A program made the position numbers and the translations under genes. Of a DNA stretch of 64,000 nt, positions 13,461 through 32,607 are shown one piece after another. The stretch lies in the IMG/VR virus record IMGVR_UViG_3300024255_001563, positions 64,001 to 128,000 of that record. One strand, given 5' to 3'. The notes below the pieces were generated by a model, which was given only the letters and a program-made list of their open reading frames with translations, was not told the origin of the DNA and ran no database searches. Position 1 is the first letter of the stretch; each line of letters begins with the position of its first letter. This DNA is from a virus (Duplodnaviria; Caudoviricetes).

Positions 13461-16400
13461 TTATCCGAATATTACTGCCATTGTAATAGCAATATCTTCT
13501 GCATCAATTCTCGATATCGAACCAGTTTGCCCTGCAACAGATCCCCAAACTGATCCGTCATAAGCTTCAACTCTTCCGTCGGCTGTATTAAATCGAAGCA
13601 TACCTACTTCTGTGTATGCAGGATTTGGTCTATCTAAACTTGTACCTACCGGAAGTACAAATCCGTTTGATCCTGCTATTTTAACATAACCATTATTAGT
13701 ATTTACAAAAGTTGTAACACCGTCTTCTACAACGTTTGTAATTGTATTACTAGAAAATGCAAAATCTTCTAATACTACGCTACCTGTTCCTTGTGCAGAA
13801 AACTGTAAATCAACATCTGTATTAATTGTTGTAATAACATTAGTATCGATTTCTATATCATCAACAGTTACTCTGTTAACATCTAATTTTACACTATCAA
13901 GTGTTCCTATAACAGTATCTTCTACTATAAATCTGATAATATTATCATTTGCACCTTGTGTTGCTTCAGCAGTAATTCTTGTGTCACCGTCAACATCTTG
14001 TAAGCCATTTAGTTTAATCCAGTCACTACCGTCGTAACCTTCAAATCTTGTTAACTCAGAATTATATCTAATAATACCTGCTTCGGCTGTAGGTCTGCTT
14101 GCTATATCACCTGTTGGTAATTTTAACGAACCTGTTGAATTTATTTTAGTATATTCACTGCCAGGTTGTATAATTATATCACTAGCTGTGGAACTAATAG
14201 TATAAGAATCAATATTAAAATTATCGATAGTTATAAACCCTGCGCCGTTAGCTCTAAGCTCTAAATTTGCATCTGATGTAGTTGTTCTAATGTAGTTATC
14301 TGTAATTAAGATATCATCTACGTATGCACTTTCAACGTATAGATTCTTCCATATTTTATTAGCAAGACCTAAATTAAATGTACTAGTAACTGATGGTTTT
14401 ATATCTGAAGCAATTCCTGCAACTATTTGTATATTATCTGTAACTTCGTCGCCGATTACAATATTACCACCAATTGTAACGTTTCCGGTAACATCTAAGT
14501 CGCCGCTAATATTAACATTATTATTAAGATTAATTTGATCTGATGCTGCTGTAAAATTAACATCTCCTGATAAGCTTTCAAGAGTATTTCCGCTAATTCT
14601 TAAATTTCCAGTATCAATTTTATCAGCTAATATTGATGTAGTATTCACACCATCTGTAAATGTAAGACCTGTATCAGTATCAACATTAAAGTTTGCTGCA
14701 CTAAAAGTAACTTGTCCTGTGTCTTGATTTACGTAAAATAAATCACCAACTCTAAAGTCACCTCTATGGTCTACAGAATTATATCTCATTTTTGCATTAT
14801 TGAGTGCAACTACTTCATTTGCTTGAATTACTGTAGTAGGATCATTTGTAACTTCTTTACCGTTACCGATGTATGCTAAATTTTGTCCGATAGCATAAAC
14901 AATTACTCCAGGACCATTACCGTATAATCCGTAATTACCATATACACAAGCACTTCCTATCATACGTACTTCTGCGCCGAAATCGCTATAATCAGCTAAA
15001 GTAAATTGTGTTGCTACTGCGCCGCCACTAAATCTAATATCTTGCTGTTGAATAGTTTCGTCTGTGAACACAGTTGAACTGTCTTCACCGTTAAATCTCA
15101 TTAACAGTACAGTATCTTCTGTTGAATAAAGATTAACAATCGGTGCTGTAAAGTTACTTGTATATTGTGCTACACCTTTTTGGATTCTAAAATCATCAAA
15201 GTGAGCATTTGCCGATTCGGTACCATCATGTTTTGCACCTATAGTTAAAGGTTTTGCAACACCGTAATTATTGTTATCAGTATATGTTGACCCTACTTGT
15301 GTACCGTCTACAAAAAGTTTTGTATCTGTACCTGATCTAGTAATTGCAATATGATGCCACGTACTTGCTGTTAGAGCACTTGTTCCTAAAATTTTAACTG
15401 CACTATCTGTATAGTAAACTATATCACCTGTATTTGTTGTATATACATAGGGAGTAATATCTGCATCGATGCCTGCTCTAAAGTCAAACAATGTTTCATT
15501 AGTTGCTGGCAATGCACCATTTGAGTAATACCATGTTTCTATTGTAAAATCGTCTGTCCCAAATCCAAAATCATTTTGTGCTACAATAGTTAAGTAATCA
15601 CCTGATCCGCCTAAGTCTAAACTTGCACTACCGAATTTTTTAATATCTTGATCTATACTTGCTGCGCCGTTACCTGCAACAGTTTTGCCTATTCTAGAAG
15701 TAGGCGTTTCAAATCCTTCAGACTTTCCAGATATATAAATTTTACCATCTGCATCTACACTCGAAATTGTTCCGGTTGCTAGTACAGTTACACCGTCTGT
15801 ATCATAATATGTAATAGTTTCTGATGCAGAATACGATCCAGTAAGGTCTGATACTCTAAGTGCTGTTTCGCCAGCACTTTTCTTACCTAGTGTGCCGTCT
15901 ATTGCATATATGCCTTTATCTGCAAAATATGTAAAACAATTTAACCATTCTACTCTTACACCATTTGTTAGTGTTATTGCATCAACTCCGGGTGTGATAA
16001 AAGTTGCACTATGAAAAAGACAACCAGCTTCTTTTGAACTAGCATCCATTACACTACCATCTAGTAAAGCGCCTTTACCTGCATCACCCTGATTAAATCC
16101 TCTTGGATCTTCTGCTGTTGTTACACTACCAGTTGTAATTACACTAACATTTCTTATGTAAGGTGATCTAGTTGTAACAGTTGCAGCAGATGCAAATTTA
16201 AATGCATATCCTGGACTATAGAAATTACTTATAGTTAAGTCTTCAATTGTAACTTCACCGGTTAATAAAAATCCATCGTTATTTTGTGTAGCAACTGTAG
16301 GTATAATTCTTACAGAACGCATACTGTGACCTTTTACAGTTACCCCTGCAGGAACAGTTAACGGAAATATCTCAGTATATGTTCCTGGCGTAATATGAAT

Positions 16401-17186
16401 TGTATCGCCAGATGATGCTACACTAAGAGCTTGCGTTAAACTAGCATACGGATCTTGCGGATGTGTTCCTGAGTGTATGTCGTCTCCATTTTCAGAAACA
16501 TAATAAATATTTCCTTGGCGTAAAATAAGATCAATTCCGTCTGCTTCAATAGCAGTACTGTTTACTTCTTCTGCGTAGAAATTTTGTACGTAAATGTCGT
16601 TCCATCTTTTACCGCCAGAATCAGGATCACTACCTAATGTATATGTATCAGTTTGTGAAGGAATAATATTACTACTAAGTTCTGAATTAAATTCGATATA
16701 ATCTGTATCAGCATCGCCAATTGTAATAACACCGTCTGCTGTAATATTACCTGTAGCATAAATGTCGCCCTGTACATTCATGTCGCTATGTATTTCAACT
16801 CGTCCTGTACCCTGTGGGGCAAGTTCTAAATTAGCATTAGTAGTATTTGTTCTAATTCGATTACCTTCGATATCAATACTATCAATTGTTAATCTATTTT
16901 GATAAACTACGTTATCTAATGTGCCTAAGGCAAGTGTACTTGTAGCACTTGATATCGTGTTACCTTGTATTCTAACATCGCCTATTTCTGCTAAAGTAGT
17001 TACTTCTAGTGTAGGTGTTCTCGAAACACCGTTTACATCTAAATCGTACTGAGGTGTAGCGTTGTTAATACCGATGCGCTGGTTATTAACATCTAAATAT
17101 AGAAGATCCGTCTCAAAAGCTAGATTTACTCCCTCACGAAGTAAGTTTTGCTTTAAGAGCGGACCACTTATGCGACCTACAGCCAT
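13461..17186 (-). CDS. Tail-fibre-like virion protein with inserted LamG/concanavalin-like domain (1241 aa)
   Basis: YYVSENGDD motif; GVRVEWLNCFTYFADKG; LamG3-like segment (KFGSASLDLGG...DFTIETW...WHHIAITRSG...FDDFRI); two G.IRYN....FEGYDG..W motifs. Confidence 0.8.
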   Translation of the reverse strand: MAVGRISGPLLKQNLLREGVNLAFETDLLYLDVNNQRIGINNATPQYDLDVNGVSRTPTLEVTTLAEIGDVRIQGNTISSATSTLALGTLDNVVYQNRLTIDSIDIEGNRIRTNTTNANLELAPQGTGRVEIHSDMNVQGDIYATGNITADGVITIGDADTDYIEFNSELSSNIIPSQTDTYTLGSDPDSGGKRWNDIYVQNFYAEEVNSTAIEADGIDLILRQGNIYYVSENGDDIHSGTHPQDPYASLTQALSVASSGDTIHITPGTYTEIFPLTVPAGVTVKGHSMRSVRIIPTVATQNNDGFLLTGEVTIEDLTISNFYSPGYAFKFASAATVTTRSPYIRNVSVITTGSVTTAEDPRGFNQGDAGKGALLDGSVMDASSKEAGCLFHSATFITPGVDAITLTNGVRVEWLNCFTYFADKGIYAIDGTLGKKSAGETALRVSDLTGSYSASETITYYDTDGVTVLATGTISSVDADGKIYISGKSEGFETPTSRIGKTVAGNGAASIDQDIKKFGSASLDLGGSGDYLTIVAQNDFGFGTDDFTIETWYYSNGALPATNETLFDFRAGIDADITPYVYTTNTGDIVYYTDSAVKILGTSALTASTWHHIAITRSGTDTKLFVDGTQVGSTYTDNNNYGVAKPLTIGAKHDGTESANAHFDDFRIQKGVAQYTSNFTAPIVNLYSTEDTVLLMRFNGEDSSTVFTDETIQQQDIRFSGGAVATQFTLADYSDFGAEVRMIGSACVYGNYGLYGNGPGVIVYAIGQNLAYIGNGKEVTNDPTTVIQANEVVALNNAKMRYNSVDHRGDFRVGDLFYVNQDTGQVTFSAANFNVDTDTGLTFTDGVNTTSILADKIDTGNLRISGNTLESLSGDVNFTAASDQINLNNNVNISGDLDVTGNVTIGGNIVIGDEVTDNIQIVAGIASDIKPSVTSTFNLGLANKIWKNLYVESAYVDDILITDNYIRTTTSDANLELRANGAGFITIDNFNIDSYTISSTASDIIIQPGSEYTKINSTGSLKLPTGDIASRPTAEAGIIRYNSELTRFEGYDGSDWIKLNGLQDVDGDTRITAEATQGANDNIIRFIVEDTVIGTLDSVKLDVNRVTVDDIEIDTNVITTINTDVDLQFSAQGTGSVVLEDFAFSSNTITNVVEDGVTTFVNTNNGYVKIAGSNGFVLPVGTSLDRPNPAYTEVGMLRFNTADGRVEAYDGSVWGSVAGQTGSISRIDAEDIAITMAVIFG

Positions 17187-17286
17187 CTCTTTTCCTCAAT
17201 ACGGGGATCCTGTCCCTCCAACCACCTTACATTGCGGGTTGACCACAGTTTGTACCTGCAATACTTGGTCTATAGTGCATTAATAT

Positions 17287-17294
17287 TATTTATC
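17287..17294 (-). promoter_or_regulatory. T4-like late promoter followed by ~95 nt structured leader
   Basis: GATAAATA in the intergenic gap. Confidence 0.7.
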
Positions 17295-17305
17295 GTTTTT
17301 TACAA

Positions 17306-20300
17306 TTAACCTAGTAGAATGCTCCAAAGAGACACTTCTTCACGCATATAATCTTCTGTAACAGGATCTTCTTCAATACCCGTTCCGGGGATCCATGATA
17401 CATTATTCCAAACTTCTACACCTTTAATAGAAGGATTGTATCGGAATGCACCTATTTCTGGTCCAGGTCCGCTGTCTTCTGATACAGCAAGTACTAAATC
17501 AGTAACTGCGAATGCATTTAATCCTTTTTCATTTGTACCATTTTGAGAAATTCTAAATTTTATATTTGAAAAATCAACTGTCGAATCTTCGATGTTAAAT
17601 GTAATCTCAAAATCTTTCCATATAACAAATTCTGACCTATTTTCAATTTCCATTATTGGAGTTATTGTAACCATTCCGGCATCATCAGATCCGTCATAAG
17701 AGAACTCAAAATTTATATCGTCGCCTTCGTATAGTCTACTACCATTTGATCCGTCACCTAATATTAGTTTGCCTTTAAATCTTGCAGAGGTAAAATTACT
17801 TAAATCTAAACTATCAGTCACTGCATATCTAGTAGTGTTAGGTAAAATAGATGTATCTTCGTCAAATATATAATAATAGTTATTGCCATCAGGTGCATAT
17901 TCTACAAACTGATTTGTGTTTGTAGTAATTTTATATTGTATTTCTAGTTCCCAATTATTTGTCATACCAGAAACAAGAGTGTTTAGTGAACTCGGAACAG
18001 TTACTTCAACATTTATTCCATAATTTCCAGAGCCGCCTATTACTACTTGTGTTGGGAAAATACTTGCTTCTGTTCCTGTGTTAGAATATGTCCTAGTATC
18101 TTGCGGTACATCTCCAAACACTCCGGATATAGTCCAGTCTGTAGTATTACCGTTATCTTCAAATACACCTATTCTTGTTAGATATGTTGTTGCTGTGTCA
18201 TCGCTAGGCAATGTTATATCAACATATTCATTTGTATCTTGAAAGTTTCCTCTAAATCTTATTTGCGATAATTCTATATCGATTACATCTGAAATATCAT
18301 CTATACCAAAATCAATAAAATAGTTTTGTGATCCTGTACTAGTTGATCCTACTATCTGAGTATTAGTTACTGTTGTGGTGCCATTGCCGGTAGCAGTAGT
18401 TGTTGCTTGTGCAATTCTTACTCCGTTGTCAGATTCCCATAATGAACTTGCACTAATATCAGTCTCGGTAGATAAAGTATTAACATTGTCTGTTATTACT
18501 GTGCCAGCTAGTCCTATAATTGCAGCTAAAGTGCCTCCTGCTTTTACATAACCATTTTCACCACTTATAATTTCAAATGCACCAGCTGAAGGATTTGTCC
18601 AGGTCGTATTTCTAAAATATTCTTGATTATTAAGTGTTACCGTTCCTGTACCTTTTCTTCTAATCCAAAGATCAGCATCTGACTCAGAACTTGTAATTTC
18701 ATTATTATTAATTAAAACACTATCACTTTGTAATCCGGGTAGCGTAATACCTTCGTTGTTTATTTCTCCAACTTTTATAGCATTTATGTTAATATCAATA
18801 TAATTGTTTGTATCATTAGCAATTATACTAGTTCGTCTATCATCTGAATAGATGCCATCAAATGAAATTCTACCATCGCCGAAACCTTCAAAAACATTAT
18901 CTTCAGAACTAAATCTTAAAATTCCTACATCTTCAATTATTTCATCGTTTGTACCTACTGGTAGTCTTAATCCTTCCCCTTCAACAATTAAATTATTACT
19001 TGTAGTAAATTCAATATTTGTTGCATCAGTTGTTGTAATTGTGTTTTCTCTAAATCTAATTCCTTCAATTTCAACATAGCCTGCGCCATTTGATTGTAAA
19101 TTTAGATTAGCATCAGAAACAGTAGTTGTAATTGTAGTATCAAATATTTGTATATCGTCAATTACTATATTATCAGCATATACATCATTCCAAACTTTTG
19201 AATTACTACCTAAACTATGTGTTCTATCTTGATCGGGATAAAAATCTTGTTCTATGTTTACATTAAGATCTACAGTATCATCAGGATCATTACCTAGTCT
19301 AATCAACTCTCCTGAAATTGAAAGATCTCCTACAATATCTGTATTTTTATCAAATAATACATTTGAATTAAAGTTTGTAGTATTTGTTGCGCTATCAATA
19401 TTTAGATCACTTATTAGAGAATACATTGTTTCTCCTTCAAATCTAATATTTCCAGTTTCTACAAAAGATGTATTAAGTGTTGTTTGATCTGTACCGTTTG
19501 AGATTATAATTTGAGATAGTCCGTCTAGTGTAACATCCTCTGCATCAATACTTAATAATCCAGATTCTAAATCTACAAAAAATTCATTACCGACTTTAAA
19601 TTTACCCTTTTCGTCAGTGTTAGTTACATATATTTTTCCGCCATTAAGATCATTCCACTGTTGTTCTTCAATAACATCGTTAGGATCATTGTCTATTTTA
19701 TTTTGTGTACCTATGTATGCAAAATTATGATTAATAAGATACATAATTGTATCAGCACCGTCTGCATAGGCGCCATAGTAACCGTAAACATTAGCAGATC
19801 CAATACTACGAAGCTCTGCGCCATACTCTATAGTACTACCATCTGTACTAAGATGTCCTGTAGTGCCTCTTTCTGCAAATAAACCTTTGTCTGCAAAATA
19901 TGTAAAACTGTTAAGCCATTCTACTCGCACACCGTTAGTCATGTACAATCCAGTTACACCCGGAGTGATAAATGTTGCACTATGGAACAGCATACTAGCA
20001 GTCGGACTTGACGAATCGATAACGCCGCCGTCAACTGTTGCACCACTACCTGATTTAAATGCTGCTATTTTTAGTTCATAGCTATATGCAGTAGCTAATG
20101 TTATGCCGTCGGTTTCAAAATTACTACTCCTAAAAGGATATATGTCAGCATCTTTTGTAAGATTACGAAGATCATATCTGTAAAGGAAGTCAGTAGCCGG
20201 TCTATAAAAAAGATAATTGTCTACGATTGTATTACCGCTAACATTATTTGGTGTAGGAACTCCTGTCTTTGTTCCTGTAACACTTCCTGTGTTTAAATCA

Positions 20301-22144
20301 TATACTGTAATTGTATTAGATTCAACATTCACAAAAGTTGTTCCTTCAATTGCAAATTTTCCACCTGCATTTGAAGGTAAACCTAAATTACGTTGTAGTG
20401 TCCCTGTAGCAGTGTCGTAGACATCACCGTTGTTATCTCCTACAACAATATAATCATCACTAATAACAAATTTTGTTACTCCTAGTTCTAATGAATAAGA
20501 ATAACTTAGTTGTCCATTAGCATAACTGTCTAGTGTGTATACATTTATTGTGTCTTGTACAACAGCACTGGTATTGTATGCACTAGTAAGTGCTGCATAA
20601 TTGGTTGTGATCAACGATTCACCTTGTCCTAATTCTAGATCAGATCCAGATATACCAGACATGCCTGTAGGGGTAGGCACAGAACGTCGGCCAAAGCCTA
20701 AAGTAACTGTTTCTACTTGATTATCTTCGCCTATGACAAAAGTATTATGCGCAGGAAATCCATTACTTACAAAACTGCCTGCATCACCATAATTACCGCC
20801 AAACGAACCTATGCTTAAATCTTCTGAACCTTCTTCGCCAGTTTCTTTGTTAACCCATTTTAAATATGATCTAGCTGGAAAACCACTATATTCTCTAAAC
20901 CAGCCTATTGCCCAGTAATCTCTTGTATTAAGACCGTAATAACCTCTGTTTGATTGTTTGTTACCACTGGGACCAAACCATGTAACATCTTTTTGATCAG
21001 GATATAAAACTTTTTCAACATAACCTTCTGCTGTAATTACGCTTACATTTCTAACATATGGAGAGCGTGTGCTTAACACAGCATCTGTTGCAAAACTAAA
21101 TGCAGAACCTGGACTGTAAAAATCTTTTACAGTTAGATCTTCAACTGTTGAATTATCATTTAATTTAAACACATCTTCAAATTCATAACCAGCAGCAGGT
21201 TTTATAATTGTGTTTCTAATTTCTTCACCTTTAACTGTAACATTATCAGGAACTATCAAAGGTAGTTCTTCTTCATATTCACCTGCAAATATATGTACTG
21301 TTACAGTTCCTTCGCCGCTTGCATCAGCTGCTTCTAATGCACGTCTTACTGTTCTAAATGGCCCTTGTACATGATCGCCTACATTTGTATCGTCGCCGTT
21401 TTGCGAAACATAAAACATATTTCCAACTCTAGAATTGATAGTAACAAATCCTGAAATAACTTCGCCTGTTTCTACTGCTGCACCGTTTAGTAAATTTGAA
21501 TGTATTTCGCCAAATCTTCTATCACTACTACCTAAGTTGTATGTATCTGTAATGTCTGGAATAATATTACTTTGTACTTGCGTATCAAAACTAATTTCAT
21601 CAGGAGTCTCAGGACCAGTCCCAAATATTAAATCTCCGCCCATTGAAATGTTGCCTGTAGCATTCATACTACCGTATATGTCAACATTATTTAAAAATTC
21701 AACTGTGCCTGTTCCGCTTGGAATTAAATCTAAATTAGCATCACTATTATAAGTTGTAATTTTTTCATTATCTATGAGTATGTCAGAAGTTGCTAATGCA
21801 CTCAACTGTATATTAGGATCTGCTCCATCAACAGGAGTTGCTGTAAGATACAGTATGTCTGTGTCTACACCAACTGTATTATTTTGTGCTGTAAATAATG
21901 GAAAAACTTCCATAATATCTGCATTTAAATTTTCTGATCTAAATTTTGTCTTTACAGTTAAATCTTTACTAGGATTTTCTAAGTCTATACCTATTCGCCC
22001 AGTAACTGGATCAAGATGTAACAACGCAGTGTTAGATGCAGTGTTTTTAAAATTTAAATTTGGCTTGCCGGCGCCGCCTTGATATAACTCAAGATTGTCT
22101 TGTAATACGCCGCCGCCTATACGTCCAGTTTGTGGTTCAGGCAT
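17306..22144 (-). CDS. Tail-fibre-like virion protein (1612 aa), paralog of 13461..17186
   Basis: Shared GRI.G..L..NL start, FYVSQNGDD, SMLFHSATFITPGV and GVRVEWLNSFTYFADKG blocks; carries different inserted domains. Confidence 0.8.
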   Translation of the reverse strand: MPEPQTGRIGGGVLQDNLELYQGGAGKPNLNFKNTASNTALLHLDPVTGRIGIDLENPSKDLTVKTKFRSENLNADIMEVFPLFTAQNNTVGVDTDILYLTATPVDGADPNIQLSALATSDILIDNEKITTYNSDANLDLIPSGTGTVEFLNNVDIYGSMNATGNISMGGDLIFGTGPETPDEISFDTQVQSNIIPDITDTYNLGSSDRRFGEIHSNLLNGAAVETGEVISGFVTINSRVGNMFYVSQNGDDTNVGDHVQGPFRTVRRALEAADASGEGTVTVHIFAGEYEEELPLIVPDNVTVKGEEIRNTIIKPAAGYEFEDVFKLNDNSTVEDLTVKDFYSPGSAFSFATDAVLSTRSPYVRNVSVITAEGYVEKVLYPDQKDVTWFGPSGNKQSNRGYYGLNTRDYWAIGWFREYSGFPARSYLKWVNKETGEEGSEDLSIGSFGGNYGDAGSFVSNGFPAHNTFVIGEDNQVETVTLGFGRRSVPTPTGMSGISGSDLELGQGESLITTNYAALTSAYNTSAVVQDTINVYTLDSYANGQLSYSYSLELGVTKFVISDDYIVVGDNNGDVYDTATGTLQRNLGLPSNAGGKFAIEGTTFVNVESNTITVYDLNTGSVTGTKTGVPTPNNVSGNTIVDNYLFYRPATDFLYRYDLRNLTKDADIYPFRSSNFETDGITLATAYSYELKIAAFKSGSGATVDGGVIDSSSPTASMLFHSATFITPGVTGLYMTNGVRVEWLNSFTYFADKGLFAERGTTGHLSTDGSTIEYGAELRSIGSANVYGYYGAYADGADTIMYLINHNFAYIGTQNKIDNDPNDVIEEQQWNDLNGGKIYVTNTDEKGKFKVGNEFFVDLESGLLSIDAEDVTLDGLSQIIISNGTDQTTLNTSFVETGNIRFEGETMYSLISDLNIDSATNTTNFNSNVLFDKNTDIVGDLSISGELIRLGNDPDDTVDLNVNIEQDFYPDQDRTHSLGSNSKVWNDVYADNIVIDDIQIFDTTITTTVSDANLNLQSNGAGYVEIEGIRFRENTITTTDATNIEFTTSNNLIVEGEGLRLPVGTNDEIIEDVGILRFSSEDNVFEGFGDGRISFDGIYSDDRRTSIIANDTNNYIDININAIKVGEINNEGITLPGLQSDSVLINNNEITSSESDADLWIRRKGTGTVTLNNQEYFRNTTWTNPSAGAFEIISGENGYVKAGGTLAAIIGLAGTVITDNVNTLSTETDISASSLWESDNGVRIAQATTTATGNGTTTVTNTQIVGSTSTGSQNYFIDFGIDDISDVIDIELSQIRFRGNFQDTNEYVDITLPSDDTATTYLTRIGVFEDNGNTTDWTISGVFGDVPQDTRTYSNTGTEASIFPTQVVIGGSGNYGINVEVTVPSSLNTLVSGMTNNWELEIQYKITTNTNQFVEYAPDGNNYYYIFDEDTSILPNTTRYAVTDSLDLSNFTSARFKGKLILGDGSNGSRLYEGDDINFEFSYDGSDDAGMVTITPIMEIENRSEFVIWKDFEITFNIEDSTVDFSNIKFRISQNGTNEKGLNAFAVTDLVLAVSEDSGPGPEIGAFRYNPSIKGVEVWNNVSWIPGTGIEEDPVTEDYMREEVSLWSILLG

Positions 22145-22165
22145 TTTTTACTCCTTTGACATATG

Positions 22166-22173
22166 TATTTATT
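22166..22173 (-). promoter_or_regulatory. T4-like late promoter overlapping upstream stop codon
   Basis: AATAAATA, followed by CATATGTC identical to the 25417 promoter. Confidence 0.7.
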
Positions 22174-24858: not shown

Positions 24859-25320
24859 TTATGCGTCTTCTGTGAAATCGTCGTCATCGGTTCCAACTAA
24901 TGTGTTGTCGTCGCCAGCTTCTTCAACTTGTGCTGCACCGTCTGCTACAGATGTACTAAAGTTCCATGCTACACTTACACCATCATAAGCATTACTACCT
25001 GTTGCACTTGGTGCTGACAATGTAGCTTTACGTCCAGAAATTTTACTTACTGTGTATGTTTCTGCATCGTCCATTTTGAATGAAATAGCCATTTCGCCTT
25101 CTGCTAATGCTGCTGGTAGTTTACCAGTTGTTAGCGTACAAGTAAATAAGCCTGGTGTTTCAATTTCTTCACATACAAATTTCTTTGATGCTTTTTGCTT
25201 TACAATGTAACCTTCTTTAACTGCTGTGCCGTTATGAAAATTTACTTTAATTTCGTTGCCGCCTGCTGTAGGTCCTACGCCTGCTACACCGAATAATCGT
25301 TTGTTTAGTGGTCTTCCCAT
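24859..25320 (-). CDS. Putative virion (possibly head-associated) protein, 153 aa
   Basis: Strong SD AGGAG, own late promoter, capsid-like codon usage, first structural gene after the capsid gene. Confidence 0.65.
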   Translation of the reverse strand: MGRPLNKRLFGVAGVGPTAGGNEIKVNFHNGTAVKEGYIVKQKASKKFVCEEIETPGLFTCTLTTGKLPAALAEGEMAISFKMDDAETYTVSKISGRKATLSAPSATGSNAYDGVSVAWNFSTSVADGAAQVEEAGDDNTLVGTDDDDFTEDA

Positions 25321-25416
25321 TTTTTTTCTCCTATAAAAAGTAGTCCTATGCCCGTTCTATGAGCTACGCTGCGGGTACAGCATAAGTCCGCCTTGCGGCA
25401 CACTATCTGACATATG

Positions 25417-25431: not shown

Positions 25432-25465
25432 AAAAAAGCCCGACACAGTTAAGTATCGAGCTTTT
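25432..25465 (-). terminator. Intrinsic terminator
   Basis: Minus strand reads AAAAGCUCGAUAC-UUAACU-GUGUCGGGCUUUUUU; the G-U pairs form only on the minus strand. Confidence 0.8.
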
Positions 25466-25678
25466 AATAATAAGGGTGATAGGTTGGACTTTGAGAATAC
25501 CAACAACCTCCTAGTAGCTCTCGCTAAATTCGGAGGAGCCTAGCATCGGATAGTTACTTCCAAAAACATATCTTTGTATCTCTACAATCATATGCTGCCA
25601 CTACAGCTACTAGCCAAGTTGTGTCACTACGCAACACCGTTCCTTGCACTATCTAACTTAGACCGTCGCCTAACTTAT
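25432..25678 (-). ncRNA. Candidate ~245 nt structured non-coding RNA with own sigma70 promoter and terminator
   Basis: Promoter at 25685-25712, terminator at 25432-25465, a 9-bp long-range inverted repeat CUAGUAGCU/AGCUACUAG and several hairpins; no ORF with a good SD. Confidence 0.55.
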
Positions 25679-25684
25679 GTAACT

Positions 25685-25712
25685 AATATAACATCATTAC
25701 AAACAATGTCAA
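25685..25712 (-). promoter_or_regulatory. Sigma70-type early promoter
   Basis: TTGACA-N16-TATATT with an extended -10 TG and an A/T-tract UP-like element upstream. Confidence 0.7.
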
Positions 25713-25780: not shown

Positions 25781-26959
25781 TTAGCTAAAGCTTACATTAC
25801 CATTAGTAATTGCAACGTTAGCTAAGTAATCAGCTGCGTTACCAAGCGATGATGCTGTGTTGTTTAACTCAACATATCCGTAACGTGTCATGAATGACAC
25901 TGTTGGTTCGAATGATGTTGGGTCAAGCACAACGCCTGAGCTCATTAGTGGGATGTATGGGCAATAGAATGCTGCTGCATCTGATTCACTTGAACCTTTG
26001 TAGCCAACTAGTACTGCTGTACCGTCACCTGCATATGTGTCTACATAGACACGCATTGCGTTATTTAATGTACCAACCATTTTAGTGTTAGTTGGTGCTT
26101 CAAATGTACCCTCTGTTGTACGTGCAAATGCGCTTGTAGTAGCACTTTGTAGAATTGTTAGCGCAAATGGGCTAACGACTGCAAAGTTACCTGCGCCTCT
26201 GCGTGTACGCTGAGCGATTAGGTTTGATGCACGGTTGATTTGTACTGCAAGTGCTGCATGCTCGTCACCAACAAATGTTGCTGTACCAGACACGCCCGCT
26301 TGGTCGTATGTTTCAACTGCTGCACCACTTAGTGTGCGTAAAGAAGCTAATACTTCTTGATCGATTTCAGCAGTAATCTCTTGTGCTAGAGCAGCCATAA
26401 TTTCTGCTTCAACATCAATACCATGTTGGGACTGAGCATCTTGAGCTGATTCAAACGTCCAACGAGCACTCAACTTACGAGTTTTCGCTTCAACAGTTTG
26501 CTTCAAGATCTGAATGCTTAGTTGATTACCAGCTGCACCTTCAAGAGCTGCTGTACTGTTTGCTGCACCAGGGTTTGCTTCATCACCTGAATATGATGTT
26601 GCAATTTTGAATGGGCTTAGAGCCTCTTCACCTGCTGTTGCACCGTTGGCGCCCGCATTCACAGTGTCGCTATAACGAACACGTAGAGTGTGGATTTGAC
26701 CAACTGGACCAGTCATAGGCTGAACACCTACGATTTCATTAGCAATGACTGTTGGCATTACACGTCTGATCACTGGTAGGATCACACGATTTAGAGTTGC
26801 TACGTTACCGGCAGAAGTAGCGCCTGCAGTGGCTGTCTCTGACAAATACTTACGTGTATTTTCCAAAGTTGCGGCCATTACAGATTTCTTGTTGCCATTT
26901 AGGCCTTCAAGAAGTGCTGTCTTCGTATCCTGCCAGCGACTTTCTAGTAGTTCTGACAT
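25781..26959 (-). CDS. gp23: Major capsid protein, T4 gp23-like
   Basis: ILPVIRRVMPTVIANEIVGVQPMTGPVGQI, KTRKLSARWTFESAQD, FYCPYIPL, FMTRYG: hallmark gp23 motifs. Confidence 0.97.
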   Translation of the reverse strand: MSELLESRWQDTKTALLEGLNGNKKSVMAATLENTRKYLSETATAGATSAGNVATLNRVILPVIRRVMPTVIANEIVGVQPMTGPVGQIHTLRVRYSDTVNAGANGATAGEEALSPFKIATSYSGDEANPGAANSTAALEGAAGNQLSIQILKQTVEAKTRKLSARWTFESAQDAQSQHGIDVEAEIMAALAQEITAEIDQEVLASLRTLSGAAVETYDQAGVSGTATFVGDEHAALAVQINRASNLIAQRTRRGAGNFAVVSPFALTILQSATTSAFARTTEGTFEAPTNTKMVGTLNNAMRVYVDTYAGDGTAVLVGYKGSSESDAAAFYCPYIPLMSSGVVLDPTSFEPTVSFMTRYGYVELNNTASSLGNAADYLANVAITNGNVSFS

Positions 26960-30858: not shown

Positions 30859-30866
30859 TATTTATA
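30859..30866 (-). promoter_or_regulatory. T4-like late promoter overlapping portal stop codon
   Basis: TATAAATA, perfect T4 consensus. Confidence 0.75.
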
Positions 30867-32607
30867 CAGTTTGGCTAGTTGTTGTTGTTTCTGATCCTTG
30901 ACTATCAGTTGCACTAGAAGGACCATCTTCTGCTCCGCCTTCGATAGGAGTAACATCTCCTTCTAGTTCATCTTCTGCGCCAGTTAAATCGTCAGATATG
31001 CCTGCACCTGTAATTCCTTCGCTTCTAAGTTCTCCGCTAGCATCAGTTCCGTCTGCTGGCATTATGTCTTCATTTTCTTGTCGCCACAAGCGTTCGTTTT
31101 CTGCAACTTCTTCATCAGTCATTCCTAAGAACCTTTTTAGTGCAAATCTATTTGAAATATAAGGGATAGCACTCATTTGTGTGTATGTTGGTACACGAGC
31201 ATTATCAATTTCACTTTGACGATATGCAGCAAAGTTTTGTGGCGGTTGGAATCTAATATCAAACATTGAAGTATCAATGTTTATACCTTTTTCAAGTAAG
31301 TAGCGTTTAAACTCTGTGTTAAATTCTTCAATCACTAAGTTTTGTAAACGTTCACAGTAAGTATTAAATCTTAATTCTTGAATATATGCTGTACCCACTC
31401 TACCGTCATTATATTGGGCGGCACTGTCGTCAGCACCAGTTGGTAGGTAACTACTAGGTATACGCAAACCTCTAACCAATTTATTTGTGAAATATCTAAG
31501 GTCATCAATCTCTCCTAGGTTAGTACCGCCTGGTAGTGTTTCAACTTTTGATCCACGGCCTTCTGCTGTCTGTGGAAAAAAGTAATCTTCGTTGATTGAC
31601 AGAGGATTATATGAACTGTCTATGACATTTGATCCACCTCCTGTCGACGATGGGATACGTCTTTGATGTATTTCCGTTTTAACACGTTCCACAAATTGCA
31701 TAGCAAGGTGTGATGGCATGTTGCCCACATCAACGTAGAATACTCTGCGCTCTGGCGCACGTTGTACACGATAGATAATAATAGCATCTTCGAGTAATTC
31801 TTTTTGTTTGTATACTTTAAAAATAGTTTCAAGTAAACTATTACCAAAAGGAAAGTTGTTGTCTAAGCCTTCTGATAAACTTAAATGAACAACATGTTCA
31901 GCATCAACAGTGATTTCGTTTTCTTCTCTATGAAATCTGCTACCACTGGTCGATGTTTGAGGTTGTCCTACCATACCCCTTGCACCGCCGGAAGGTTGAT
32001 ACTGAGGATTACTGCTAGTAATATTACTTCCTGTTTGATAAGGAGATGTCATTACATTATCTTTAAAATTAATATTAAAGTTTTTAATTACATATTGTTC
32101 AGGAGTTTTGCCTTGAGATTCATTTACAATAATACTCGATACGTTTGCAGGATCTACATGAAACCATTTTTTAGTTTCTGGATCTCTTACAAAAAATTGA
32201 TCTCCATACTTGAATACATTTCTTAGCACTCTAAACATTTTTGTATCAAAAGAATTTAGTCTACACCATTGCTGTAGATATTTTTGTATAATTGTAGTTT
32301 CTGAATTTGTAGCTTGTTGTTTAAAGTCAATTTTAAAATGTGTATCATTTGACTTGTGTTTCTGTGTACAAAATTCAGCAAGGATATCTAATGCAGCATT
32401 TACTTCTGAATCTAAATCCATTGTATTATATTGACCGTAACGTTCAACACGATTCGGTGACCCAACATATACATCAGGTAAGTACGAACTATAATTAGTC
32501 CTAGCCGGACCTGCTTGAGAATTCGTATTCTTTGAACTCAAAGGAGAATATGTACCAGAAGGATTATCTCCTGTCGGCACCGGTGTAAAATATTTTTTCC
32601 AACTCAT
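30862..32607 (-). CDS. gp20: Portal protein, T4 gp20-like
   Basis: EVNAALDI, LLEDAIIIYRVQRAPERRVFYVDVGNMP, EDYFFPQTAEGRGSKVETLPGG, QELRFN. Confidence 0.97.
   Translation of the reverse strand: MSWKKYFTPVPTGDNPSGTYSPLSSKNTNSQAGPARTNYSSYLPDVYVGSPNRVERYGQYNTMDLDSEVNAALDILAEFCTQKHKSNDTHFKIDFKQQATNSETTIIQKYLQQWCRLNSFDTKMFRVLRNVFKYGDQFFVRDPETKKWFHVDPANVSSIIVNESQGKTPEQYVIKNFNINFKDNVMTSPYQTGSNITSSNPQYQPSGGARGMVGQPQTSTSGSRFHREENEITVDAEHVVHLSLSEGLDNNFPFGNSLLETIFKVYKQKELLEDAIIIYRVQRAPERRVFYVDVGNMPSHLAMQFVERVKTEIHQRRIPSSTGGGSNVIDSSYNPLSINEDYFFPQTAEGRGSKVETLPGGTNLGEIDDLRYFTNKLVRGLRIPSSYLPTGADDSAAQYNDGRVGTAYIQELRFNTYCERLQNLVIEEFNTEFKRYLLEKGINIDTSMFDIRFQPPQNFAAYRQSEIDNARVPTYTQMSAIPYISNRFALKRFLGMTDEEVAENERLWRQENEDIMPADGTDASGELRSEGITGAGISDDLTGAEDELEGDVTPIEGGAEDGPSSATDSQGSETTTTSQTV

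Follow-up and report, generated by a model that had tools for sequence, protein, structure and literature searches.

A covarying RNA leader between the late promoter and the start codon of a fibre gene family in uncultured phages

The mRNA of gene 32 of phage T4 carries a pseudoknot at the 5' end of its leader and is controlled by an autogenous translational operator: the pseudoknot nucleates cooperative binding of the ssDNA-binding protein along an unstructured A/U-rich tract that reaches the ribosome binding site (RBS). In the alpha-operon of Escherichia coli, as reportedly described by Tang and Draper in 1989, the loop of an upstream hairpin pairs with the bases just after the start codon. 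The operator of this operon is a pseudoknot that contains the RBS of rpsM and captures the 30S subunit; its repressor, S4, traps the mRNA in a form that binds 30S yet is unable to initiate (PMC10931766). The Rfam family freshwater-2 (RF02980) is a cis-regulatory motif of unknown function. Here, we describe a structured leader in front of a phage fibre gene and compare it with these three systems.

The DNA stretch that was analysed (the window, 64,000 nt) comprises bases 64001-128000 of a 200,843-bp IMG/VR virus record. According to its gene annotation, it carries the structural module of a T4-like myovirus, in which several giant virion proteins are encoded alongside the head protein and the portal. 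The leader lies on the minus strand in a 119-nt gap that separates two paralogous giant genes. The genes and the known RNA referred to below are located as follows:

13461-17186 (-): downstream gene, encoding a virion protein of 1241 aa (Pfam, PHROG)
17306-22144 (-): upstream paralogue of 1612 aa, with a late box AATAAATA 21 nt before its AUG
25318-25402 (-): full-length freshwater-2 RNA (RF02980), 66.9 bits against a gathering score of 49.9
25781-26959: gp23-type major head protein
30862-32607: portal

In the 1241-aa protein, Pfam places a DUF1565 domain at residues 233-287 and a Laminin_G_3 domain at 527-670. Its best PHROG is phrog_13163, 'baseplate wedge subunit' (E = 5.7e-199), and tail fiber families match too. 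The conserved N-terminal module of the protein opens MAVGRISGPLLK..., and the N-terminus of the 1612-aa paralogue is distantly similar (GRIGGGVLQDNLE...). The leader of this upstream paralogue is short and plain (22145-22170); of the two paralogues, only the second, downstream one has a structured leader. The freshwater-2 RNA follows a late box GATAAATA at 25424-25417 and is itself followed by the SD and AUG of a 153-aa ORF (24859-25320). Between this leader and the terminator of the head-protein gene (25762-25735) lies a stand-alone, sRNA-like unit (25434-25712, minus strand), which consists of a near-consensus sigma-70 promoter (TTGACA, 16 nt, TG-TATATT; 11 of 12 matches), ~215 nt without an ORF of at least 80 aa on that strand, and a 13-bp terminator with a U-run (25465-25434); the whole-window scan assigned it to no Rfam family at gathering score. 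No tRNA genes were found in the window.

A first-pass annotation of the window had read the gap between the paralogues as a structured late leader of ~95 nt. The strings that it quoted are all present on the minus strand where it had placed them, and the length is indeed ~95 nt when counted from the late box GATAAATA (17294-17287). From the late promoter to the beginning of the gene, the following features can be distinguished:

17287-17294 (-): late promoter box, T4-type, GATAAATA; ATAAATA invariant in relatives
17257-17279 (-): P1, 5'-end hairpin UGCA(C)UAU / GUA(U)UGCA with the apical loop AGACCAA (17271-17265); covariation
17267-17270 (-): conserved GACC in the P1 loop, able to pair either with GGUC of codons 4-5 or with UGGUC in the leader
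17248-17252 (-): CAAAC, tentative 5' strand of a possible closing helix P0, with the partner GU(A)UUG (17197-17202)
17245-17247 (-): UGU, 5' strand of a 3-bp helix, with the partner GCA (17233-17235)
17233-17235 (-): GCA, 3' strand of the UGU/GCA helix, within the P2 loop
17219-17241 (-): P2, CAACC(C) (17241-17236) with G17225 and GGUUG (17223-17219), U17224 being bulged; covariation
17204-17216 (-): P3, hairpin GGGA-CAGGA-UCCC, 6 nt upstream of the SD; 100% of cells paired
17184-17202 (-): translation initiation region, comprising GUAUUG, the SD GAGGAA (17197-17192), a spacer and the AUG (17186-17184)
17173-17177 (-): GGUCG, codons 4-5 (Gly-Arg), with which the P1 loop may pair at long range

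TATAAAT is a T4-like late box (PMC9004378), and ATAAATA is invariant, at a fixed distance from P1, in 54/54 homologous leaders selected by protein similarity. By analogy with T4, the transcript is predicted to start near 17281, and P1 begins ~2 nt past the predicted start in all members. From the late box to the start codon there are 100 nt, versus 19, 21, 24, 42 and 57 nt elsewhere in the window, in agreement with the earlier remark that the other late promoters mostly lie near their start codons. The exception is the freshwater-2 leader (25318-25402), where the distance is 96 nt; apart from these two, the window has no long late leader. It had also been noticed that the fibre leader is richer in G+C than its surroundings, and the contents are 0.52 at 17150-17249 versus 0.23-0.44 in the flanks. 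The SD lies 5 nt before the AUG, and in 80/80 loci selected by a DNA pattern (see below), an SD with AUG or GUG is found 11-16 nt past P3. Both SD and AUG are outside all supported helices; thermodynamic folding assigns the SD a middling pairing probability of 0.47, and no conserved helix masking SD or AUG was found among the homologous leaders. Since the leader contains neither a terminator nor a sigma-70 promoter, and no terminator-like site was found in 17100-17450, transcriptional attenuation is unlikely. Contigs assembled from RNA libraries (three runs) yielded only fragments of the stretch or of the cores of its relatives. A leader peptide starting at a conserved AAUG was considered and rejected: the AUG is missing in 24/84 leaders, its frame relative to the core is split 34/19/7, and the peptides range from 1 to 40 aa.

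As a single sequence, the leader folds no better than its shuffled copies: the minimum free energy is -21.2 kcal/mol versus a shuffled mean of -21.3 to -24.05, with z = 0.83 for 126 nt and 0.03 for 100 nt. The structural case therefore rests wholly on the relatives. Covariation in homologous leaders, proposed as a check by the first-pass annotation, was found in an alignment of 100 distinct sequences made with the extended model R2 (A7): 94.5% of cells are in standard pairs (75.8% in shuffled alignments), and both sides change in 19 of the 23 pairs (378 cells), values reached by 0/500 shuffles, although these shuffle figures overstate the significance because the alignments are fitted to the model and the sequences are related. 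Slid controls were 29-48% paired, and an alignment selected by protein similarity only gives the same picture. The bias of the shuffle statistics does not affect how many pair types occur in a column (as many as six in P1).

The strength of this evidence differs among the helices. In P1, which was missing from the fold first proposed, 9/9 modelled pairs change on both sides, and 88-95% of cells are paired. Its stem, rich in strand-specific G.U pairs, varies in length and sequence and carries inserts in some phages, with the loop xGACCAx kept. The AACC/GGUU stem of the first-pass annotation (CAACC 17241-17237, GGUUG 17223-17219) corresponds to P2 and is confirmed by comparison: 6/6 pairs change on both sides (for example UA 60 / CG 35, or AU 42 / GC 35 / UG 3), and one of the six, added from a pairwise scan, occurs as AU 43 / CG 35 / GU 14 / GC 3. 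The window has the short form of P2, with the loop GCAAUGUAAG; in most relatives, P2 holds an inner hairpin, P2a. Together with P2, the UGU/GCA helix forms an H-type pseudoknot. Its outer pair changes from U-A to C-G in 5/54 sequences and in 13/13 of a divergent ACCGUGG clade, probably in one evolutionary event; extended by GG (17243-17244) and CC (17236-17237), the same helix becomes a hairpin that competes with P2. P3 (17216-17204), likewise proposed earlier, is borne out by the relatives, in which one pair changes from G-C to C-G in 8/100 sequences and the hairpin is otherwise invariant, loop included. The same clade has the exchanges in UGU/GCA and in P3, and either compensation may thus go back to one event. 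A closing helix P0 adjoining the SD is possible, if weakly supported by the relatives: best-register pairing is 4.41 of 5 versus 4.29 with shuffled partners, a value reached by 1/1000 shuffles, and a clade with proteins of 350 aa has UUUAC with GUA(U)AA. Pairing of the leader CUGU with ACAG of the P3 loop was rejected; it is broken without compensation in the ACCGUGG clade, which instead compensates at GCGA.

Other parts of the fold proposed at first did not hold. The complementarity of GACCA (17270-17266) to UGGUC (17245-17241) is conserved, with 93-96% of cells paired, but AUUGCAGG is not enclosed by GACCA, which forms the apical loop of P1. The kissing pair suggested between AUUGCAGG (17262-17255) and CCCGCAAU (17238-17231), which in the window are complementary save for one A.C mismatch, shows no covariation and is 61.6% paired versus 61.5% after shuffling; it remains at chance level since AUUGCA, as the 3' strand of P1, is free to vary. 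What stands of the idea of a cis-regulatory RNA is a conserved, covarying structure at a fixed place between the late promoter and the SD of one gene family; the fold attached to this idea was partly wrong.

The family was collected from two sides. When IMG/VR was queried with the first 200 aa of the downstream protein, 80 loci with 60-99% identity were obtained, nearly all of which have a recognisably similar leader before the start codon. A covariance model built from 15 of the protein-retrieved loci (R1) has exactly one match per locus in 54/54 distinct protein-selected loci, one in the window's own 200,843-bp record and one in each of 100 sources (80 pattern-selected loci, the window and 19 earlier loci), and no matches elsewhere in the ~0.9 Mb searched. 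A gene-blind DNA pattern (ACTGTGG, 20-50 nt, GGGACAGGATCCCCGT), run against IMG/VR, matched more than 120 viral contigs as a lower bound. In all 80 loci examined, the motif is located 11-16 nt upstream of an ORF that starts MA[V/I/L]GRISGPLLK or, in a few cases, MSA[I/L]GRISGPLLK; a few members have a GUG start. The pattern-selected loci thus all precede the same N-terminus, which ties the leader to the conserved N-terminal module, the C-terminal part being variable. In these 80 loci, the N-terminus is constant at ORF lengths of 350-1808 aa, and the first ~50 residues are nearly unchanged (loci L085-L164); a constant N-terminus combined with variable length is typical of a modular fibre whose distal parts can be exchanged.

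Seawater metagenomes from at least 15 studies contain nearly identical DNA. In one seawater metagenome assembly, a 53-nt core (17201-17253) reaches a summed depth of 181 versus ~12 in the flanking DNA, and loose ends lie at its two borders; it is nearly letter-for-letter common to co-occurring phages, and assemblies break there. Conservation is stricter in the core than in the coding sequence next to it. Judged by this comparative evidence, the leader is a real folded RNA that is widespread in well over a hundred uncultured phages, which are best explained as marine and T4-like (Kyanoviridae-like). Among 50,697 phage records, from which close relatives of the window may have been excluded, blastn with 1.1 kb and tblastn with the N-terminal 200 aa revealed neither an annotated counterpart of the leader nor one of the N-terminal module; the matches obtained are partial, covering an internal domain in Melnitz and HTVC008M with 34-47% identity. 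The motif is also present on five contigs of metagenome-assembled genomes (L205-L209; GTDB genomes), two of which measure 153 kb and 335 kb. They are labelled Neomarinimicrobiota, Dehalococcoidia, Chitinophagales and Crocinitomicaceae, and since these represent four unrelated phyla, the contigs are probably mis-binned phage DNA.

A scan against Rfam, the other check proposed in the first-pass annotation, returned no match to the fibre leader. With Rfam 15 at gathering score, the only family found in the whole window was freshwater-2, at its separate site; at E values up to 10, the window leader, a long-form relative (L005) and a divergent relative (L061) matched no family, the chance matches being to miRNA and lncRNA models and one viral UPD pseudoknot model (10.9-18 bits). 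No description of the leader motif was found in the literature searches.

The conserved GACC loop of P1 has two candidate partners. Codons 4-5 of the downstream gene read GGU CG(N) and are complementary to (C)GACC, with which they could form a helix of 4-5 bp. Codon 4 is GGT in 101 of 102 distinct sequences, and the third positions of its neighbours vary; in the genes of the window, GGT accounts for 43% of Gly codons. The lone sequence with GGA as codon 4 is also the sole one with a GUCC loop. Between the loop and GGUC of codons 4-5, 94-99% of cells are paired (A-U 79, G-U 4, U-A 2), and the number of cells changed on both sides was reached by 0/500 shuffles. The loop variants GGCC, GACU and GAUC are wobble-compatible with GGUC, and GUCC is the one transversion among the variants. 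When IMG/VR and the JGI metagenomes were scanned for members with GGV as codon 4, two haplotypes were obtained (four viral contigs and three metagenome records), all with GGA and the GUCC loop; the JGI scan gave 117 stretches, and the three true members among the 80 examined are the same records as IMG/VR matches. A second, independent loop-codon compensation was not found in IMG/VR or in the examined JGI stretches. The reciprocal pattern for the GUCC loop (AGTCCA...TACTGTGGT) proved unspecific, with chance matches among those listed; among 398 loci, the GUCC loop occurs only in the four contigs with the GGA codon.

The leader itself offers a second partner, UGGUY, which is equally complementary to the loop (93% paired). 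In the sequences with the GUCC loop, this partner is still UGGUC and is mismatched. The lineage combining GUCC with GGA favours the codon partner over UGGUC in the leader; this comparison of sequences is suggestive and not decisive, because it concerns a single lineage with two haplotypes. The two partners may also be used in turn. Farther into the gene, codons 8-10 (GGU CCG CUC; 17157-17165, minus strand) are fixed at synonymous sites, with GGT in 89, CCG in 84 and CTC in 93 of 102 sequences, in contrast to the A+T-rich genome. No compensated pairing partner of these codons was found among the relatives; the loop might also pair with the second GGUC, at +22. A helix between the spacer AAGAG and CUCUU of codons 10-11, complementary in the commonest form, was rejected as the variant spacers CAAAG and AGAAU are, by eye, uncompensated, which leaves the synonymous conservation of codons 9-10 (CCG CUC) without an explanation.

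We lean, if only slightly, towards a leader that acts in cis to control translation initiation with the help of a loop-codon pseudoknot. The P1 loop would pair with GGUC of codons 4-5, and the SD and AUG would then be situated between the core and the long-range pseudoknot helix; the candidate helix, at +10 to +13, falls inside the ribosome footprint. The initiation region would thereby be held in a pseudoknotted frame, and the rate of fibre synthesis may be held down or set. More speculatively, a trans-acting factor may stabilise the closed form, much as ribosomal protein S4 traps the alpha-operon pseudoknot of E. coli. A protein is slightly favoured over a metabolite for this part, and the conserved N-terminal domain of the fibre itself or a partner in assembly might provide it. 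The leader is present in one copy per genome and always before the same N-terminal coding module. Near-invariant loops and junctions, the invariant P3 and the collapse of the relatives' contigs on the 53-nt core point to recognition by a macromolecule or a ligand over simple stability, as far as conservation patterns can tell. We rank a protein operator first, a riboswitch second and a passive element third. The most far-reaching version of control in trans is a switch that senses such a factor and gates the translation of a host-range protein, whether as a riboswitch of a new class or as an operator for autogenous control to which the N-terminal domain of the fibre binds, by opening and closing the pseudoknot with codons 4-5; it appears rather unlikely to us. 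We know of no phage virion protein for which autogenous control of such a kind has been described.

The rival explanations account for different parts of these observations. Invariant unpaired nucleotides (CAAACUGUGGU, NGCAA and the CAGGA loop of P3) beside freely covarying stems, optional stems (P2a and the inserts in P1), pseudoknot potential and the mutually exclusive pairings at GG/CC, where the UGUGG/CCNGCA hairpin competes with P2, would all suit a new class of riboswitch, in which the UGU/GCA helix, the internal loop of P2 and P3 form a small-molecule aptamer that alters access to the initiation region. Riboswitches borne by phages also have a precedent among related marine myophages: Melnitz carries one for glutamine (PMC9004378). 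An expression platform, however, was not found (neither a terminator in 17100-17450 nor a conserved SD-masking helix), the gene encodes a structural protein of the virion and has no link to metabolism that would hint at a ligand, and no Rfam riboswitch family matches; P3, moreover, shows an invariant sequence in place of covariation, and this would suit a macromolecule as the binding partner equally well. We thus regard a riboswitch as unlikely. The leader might also work without any factor, its 5' hairpin and core shielding the late mRNA from decay that depends on the 5' end and displaying SD and AUG single-stranded, with the rate of translation set high or low. Such a passive role agrees with the constant position of P1 just behind the predicted start, with the location of SD and AUG outside the supported helices and with a second structured late leader at the same position in the same genome (freshwater-2). 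Protection, however, requires neither near-invariant loops nor an invariant P3 nor a synonymous constraint on codon 4, and the other late genes of the window do without such a leader, which makes this role still less likely.

Selection could, finally, act on the DNA: as a recombination anchor, the leader and the N-terminal module would let phages swap the variable C-terminal, receptor-binding part. The constancy of the first ~50 codons in ORFs of 350-1808 aa and the core that gathers contigs of co-occurring relatives at a depth of 181 versus 12 (17201-17253) are in line with this, but helix-keeping compensatory changes and the strand-specific G.U pairs in P1 would be unexpected, as would a position exactly between promoter and SD. 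As the explanation of the leader, an anchor is very improbable; its role would be a minor contribution that could coexist with a role of the RNA.

Structured leaders of phage late genes have hardly been explored, and the fibre leader is abundant in the sea. It stands before a gene family whose variable C-terminal end probably decides host attachment, and it could serve as a small, experimentally tractable example of how the supply of a virion protein may be controlled after transcription. The apparent pairing of the loop with codons 4-5 would be an instance of RNA structure constraining a synonymous codon position. As a candidate for a new Rfam family, the leader would improve the annotation of marine viromes.

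Among the known systems, the leader of T4 gene 32 resembles the proposed fold of the fibre leader in having a pseudoknot at the 5' end of the mRNA leader of a T4-type phage. In contrast to gene 32, the fibre leader remains folded until 6 nt before the SD, and its product is a baseplate/fibre virion protein; no homology between the two was detected. Closest in its proposed function is the S4 operator of the alpha-operon (RF00140), the proposed loop-codon geometry being alike, although the loop-codon helix of the fibre leader rests on one compensatory lineage. The alpha-operon encodes ribosomal proteins, whereas the fibre leader precedes a late structural gene of a phage, and cmscan at E values up to 10 found no similarity of sequence or model between RF00140 and the fibre leader. 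Freshwater-2 shares with the fibre leader the order of late box, multi-hairpin leader of ~95 nt, SD and AUG, and both occur in uncultured aquatic T4-like phages; it differs in its three simple hairpins, its sequence and its gene (the 153-aa ORF), and RF02980 has no match at 17100-17400 with E values up to 10. The fibre leader belongs neither to the alpha-operon S4 operator nor to freshwater-2 and forms a family that is new to Rfam 15 and to the literature searched.
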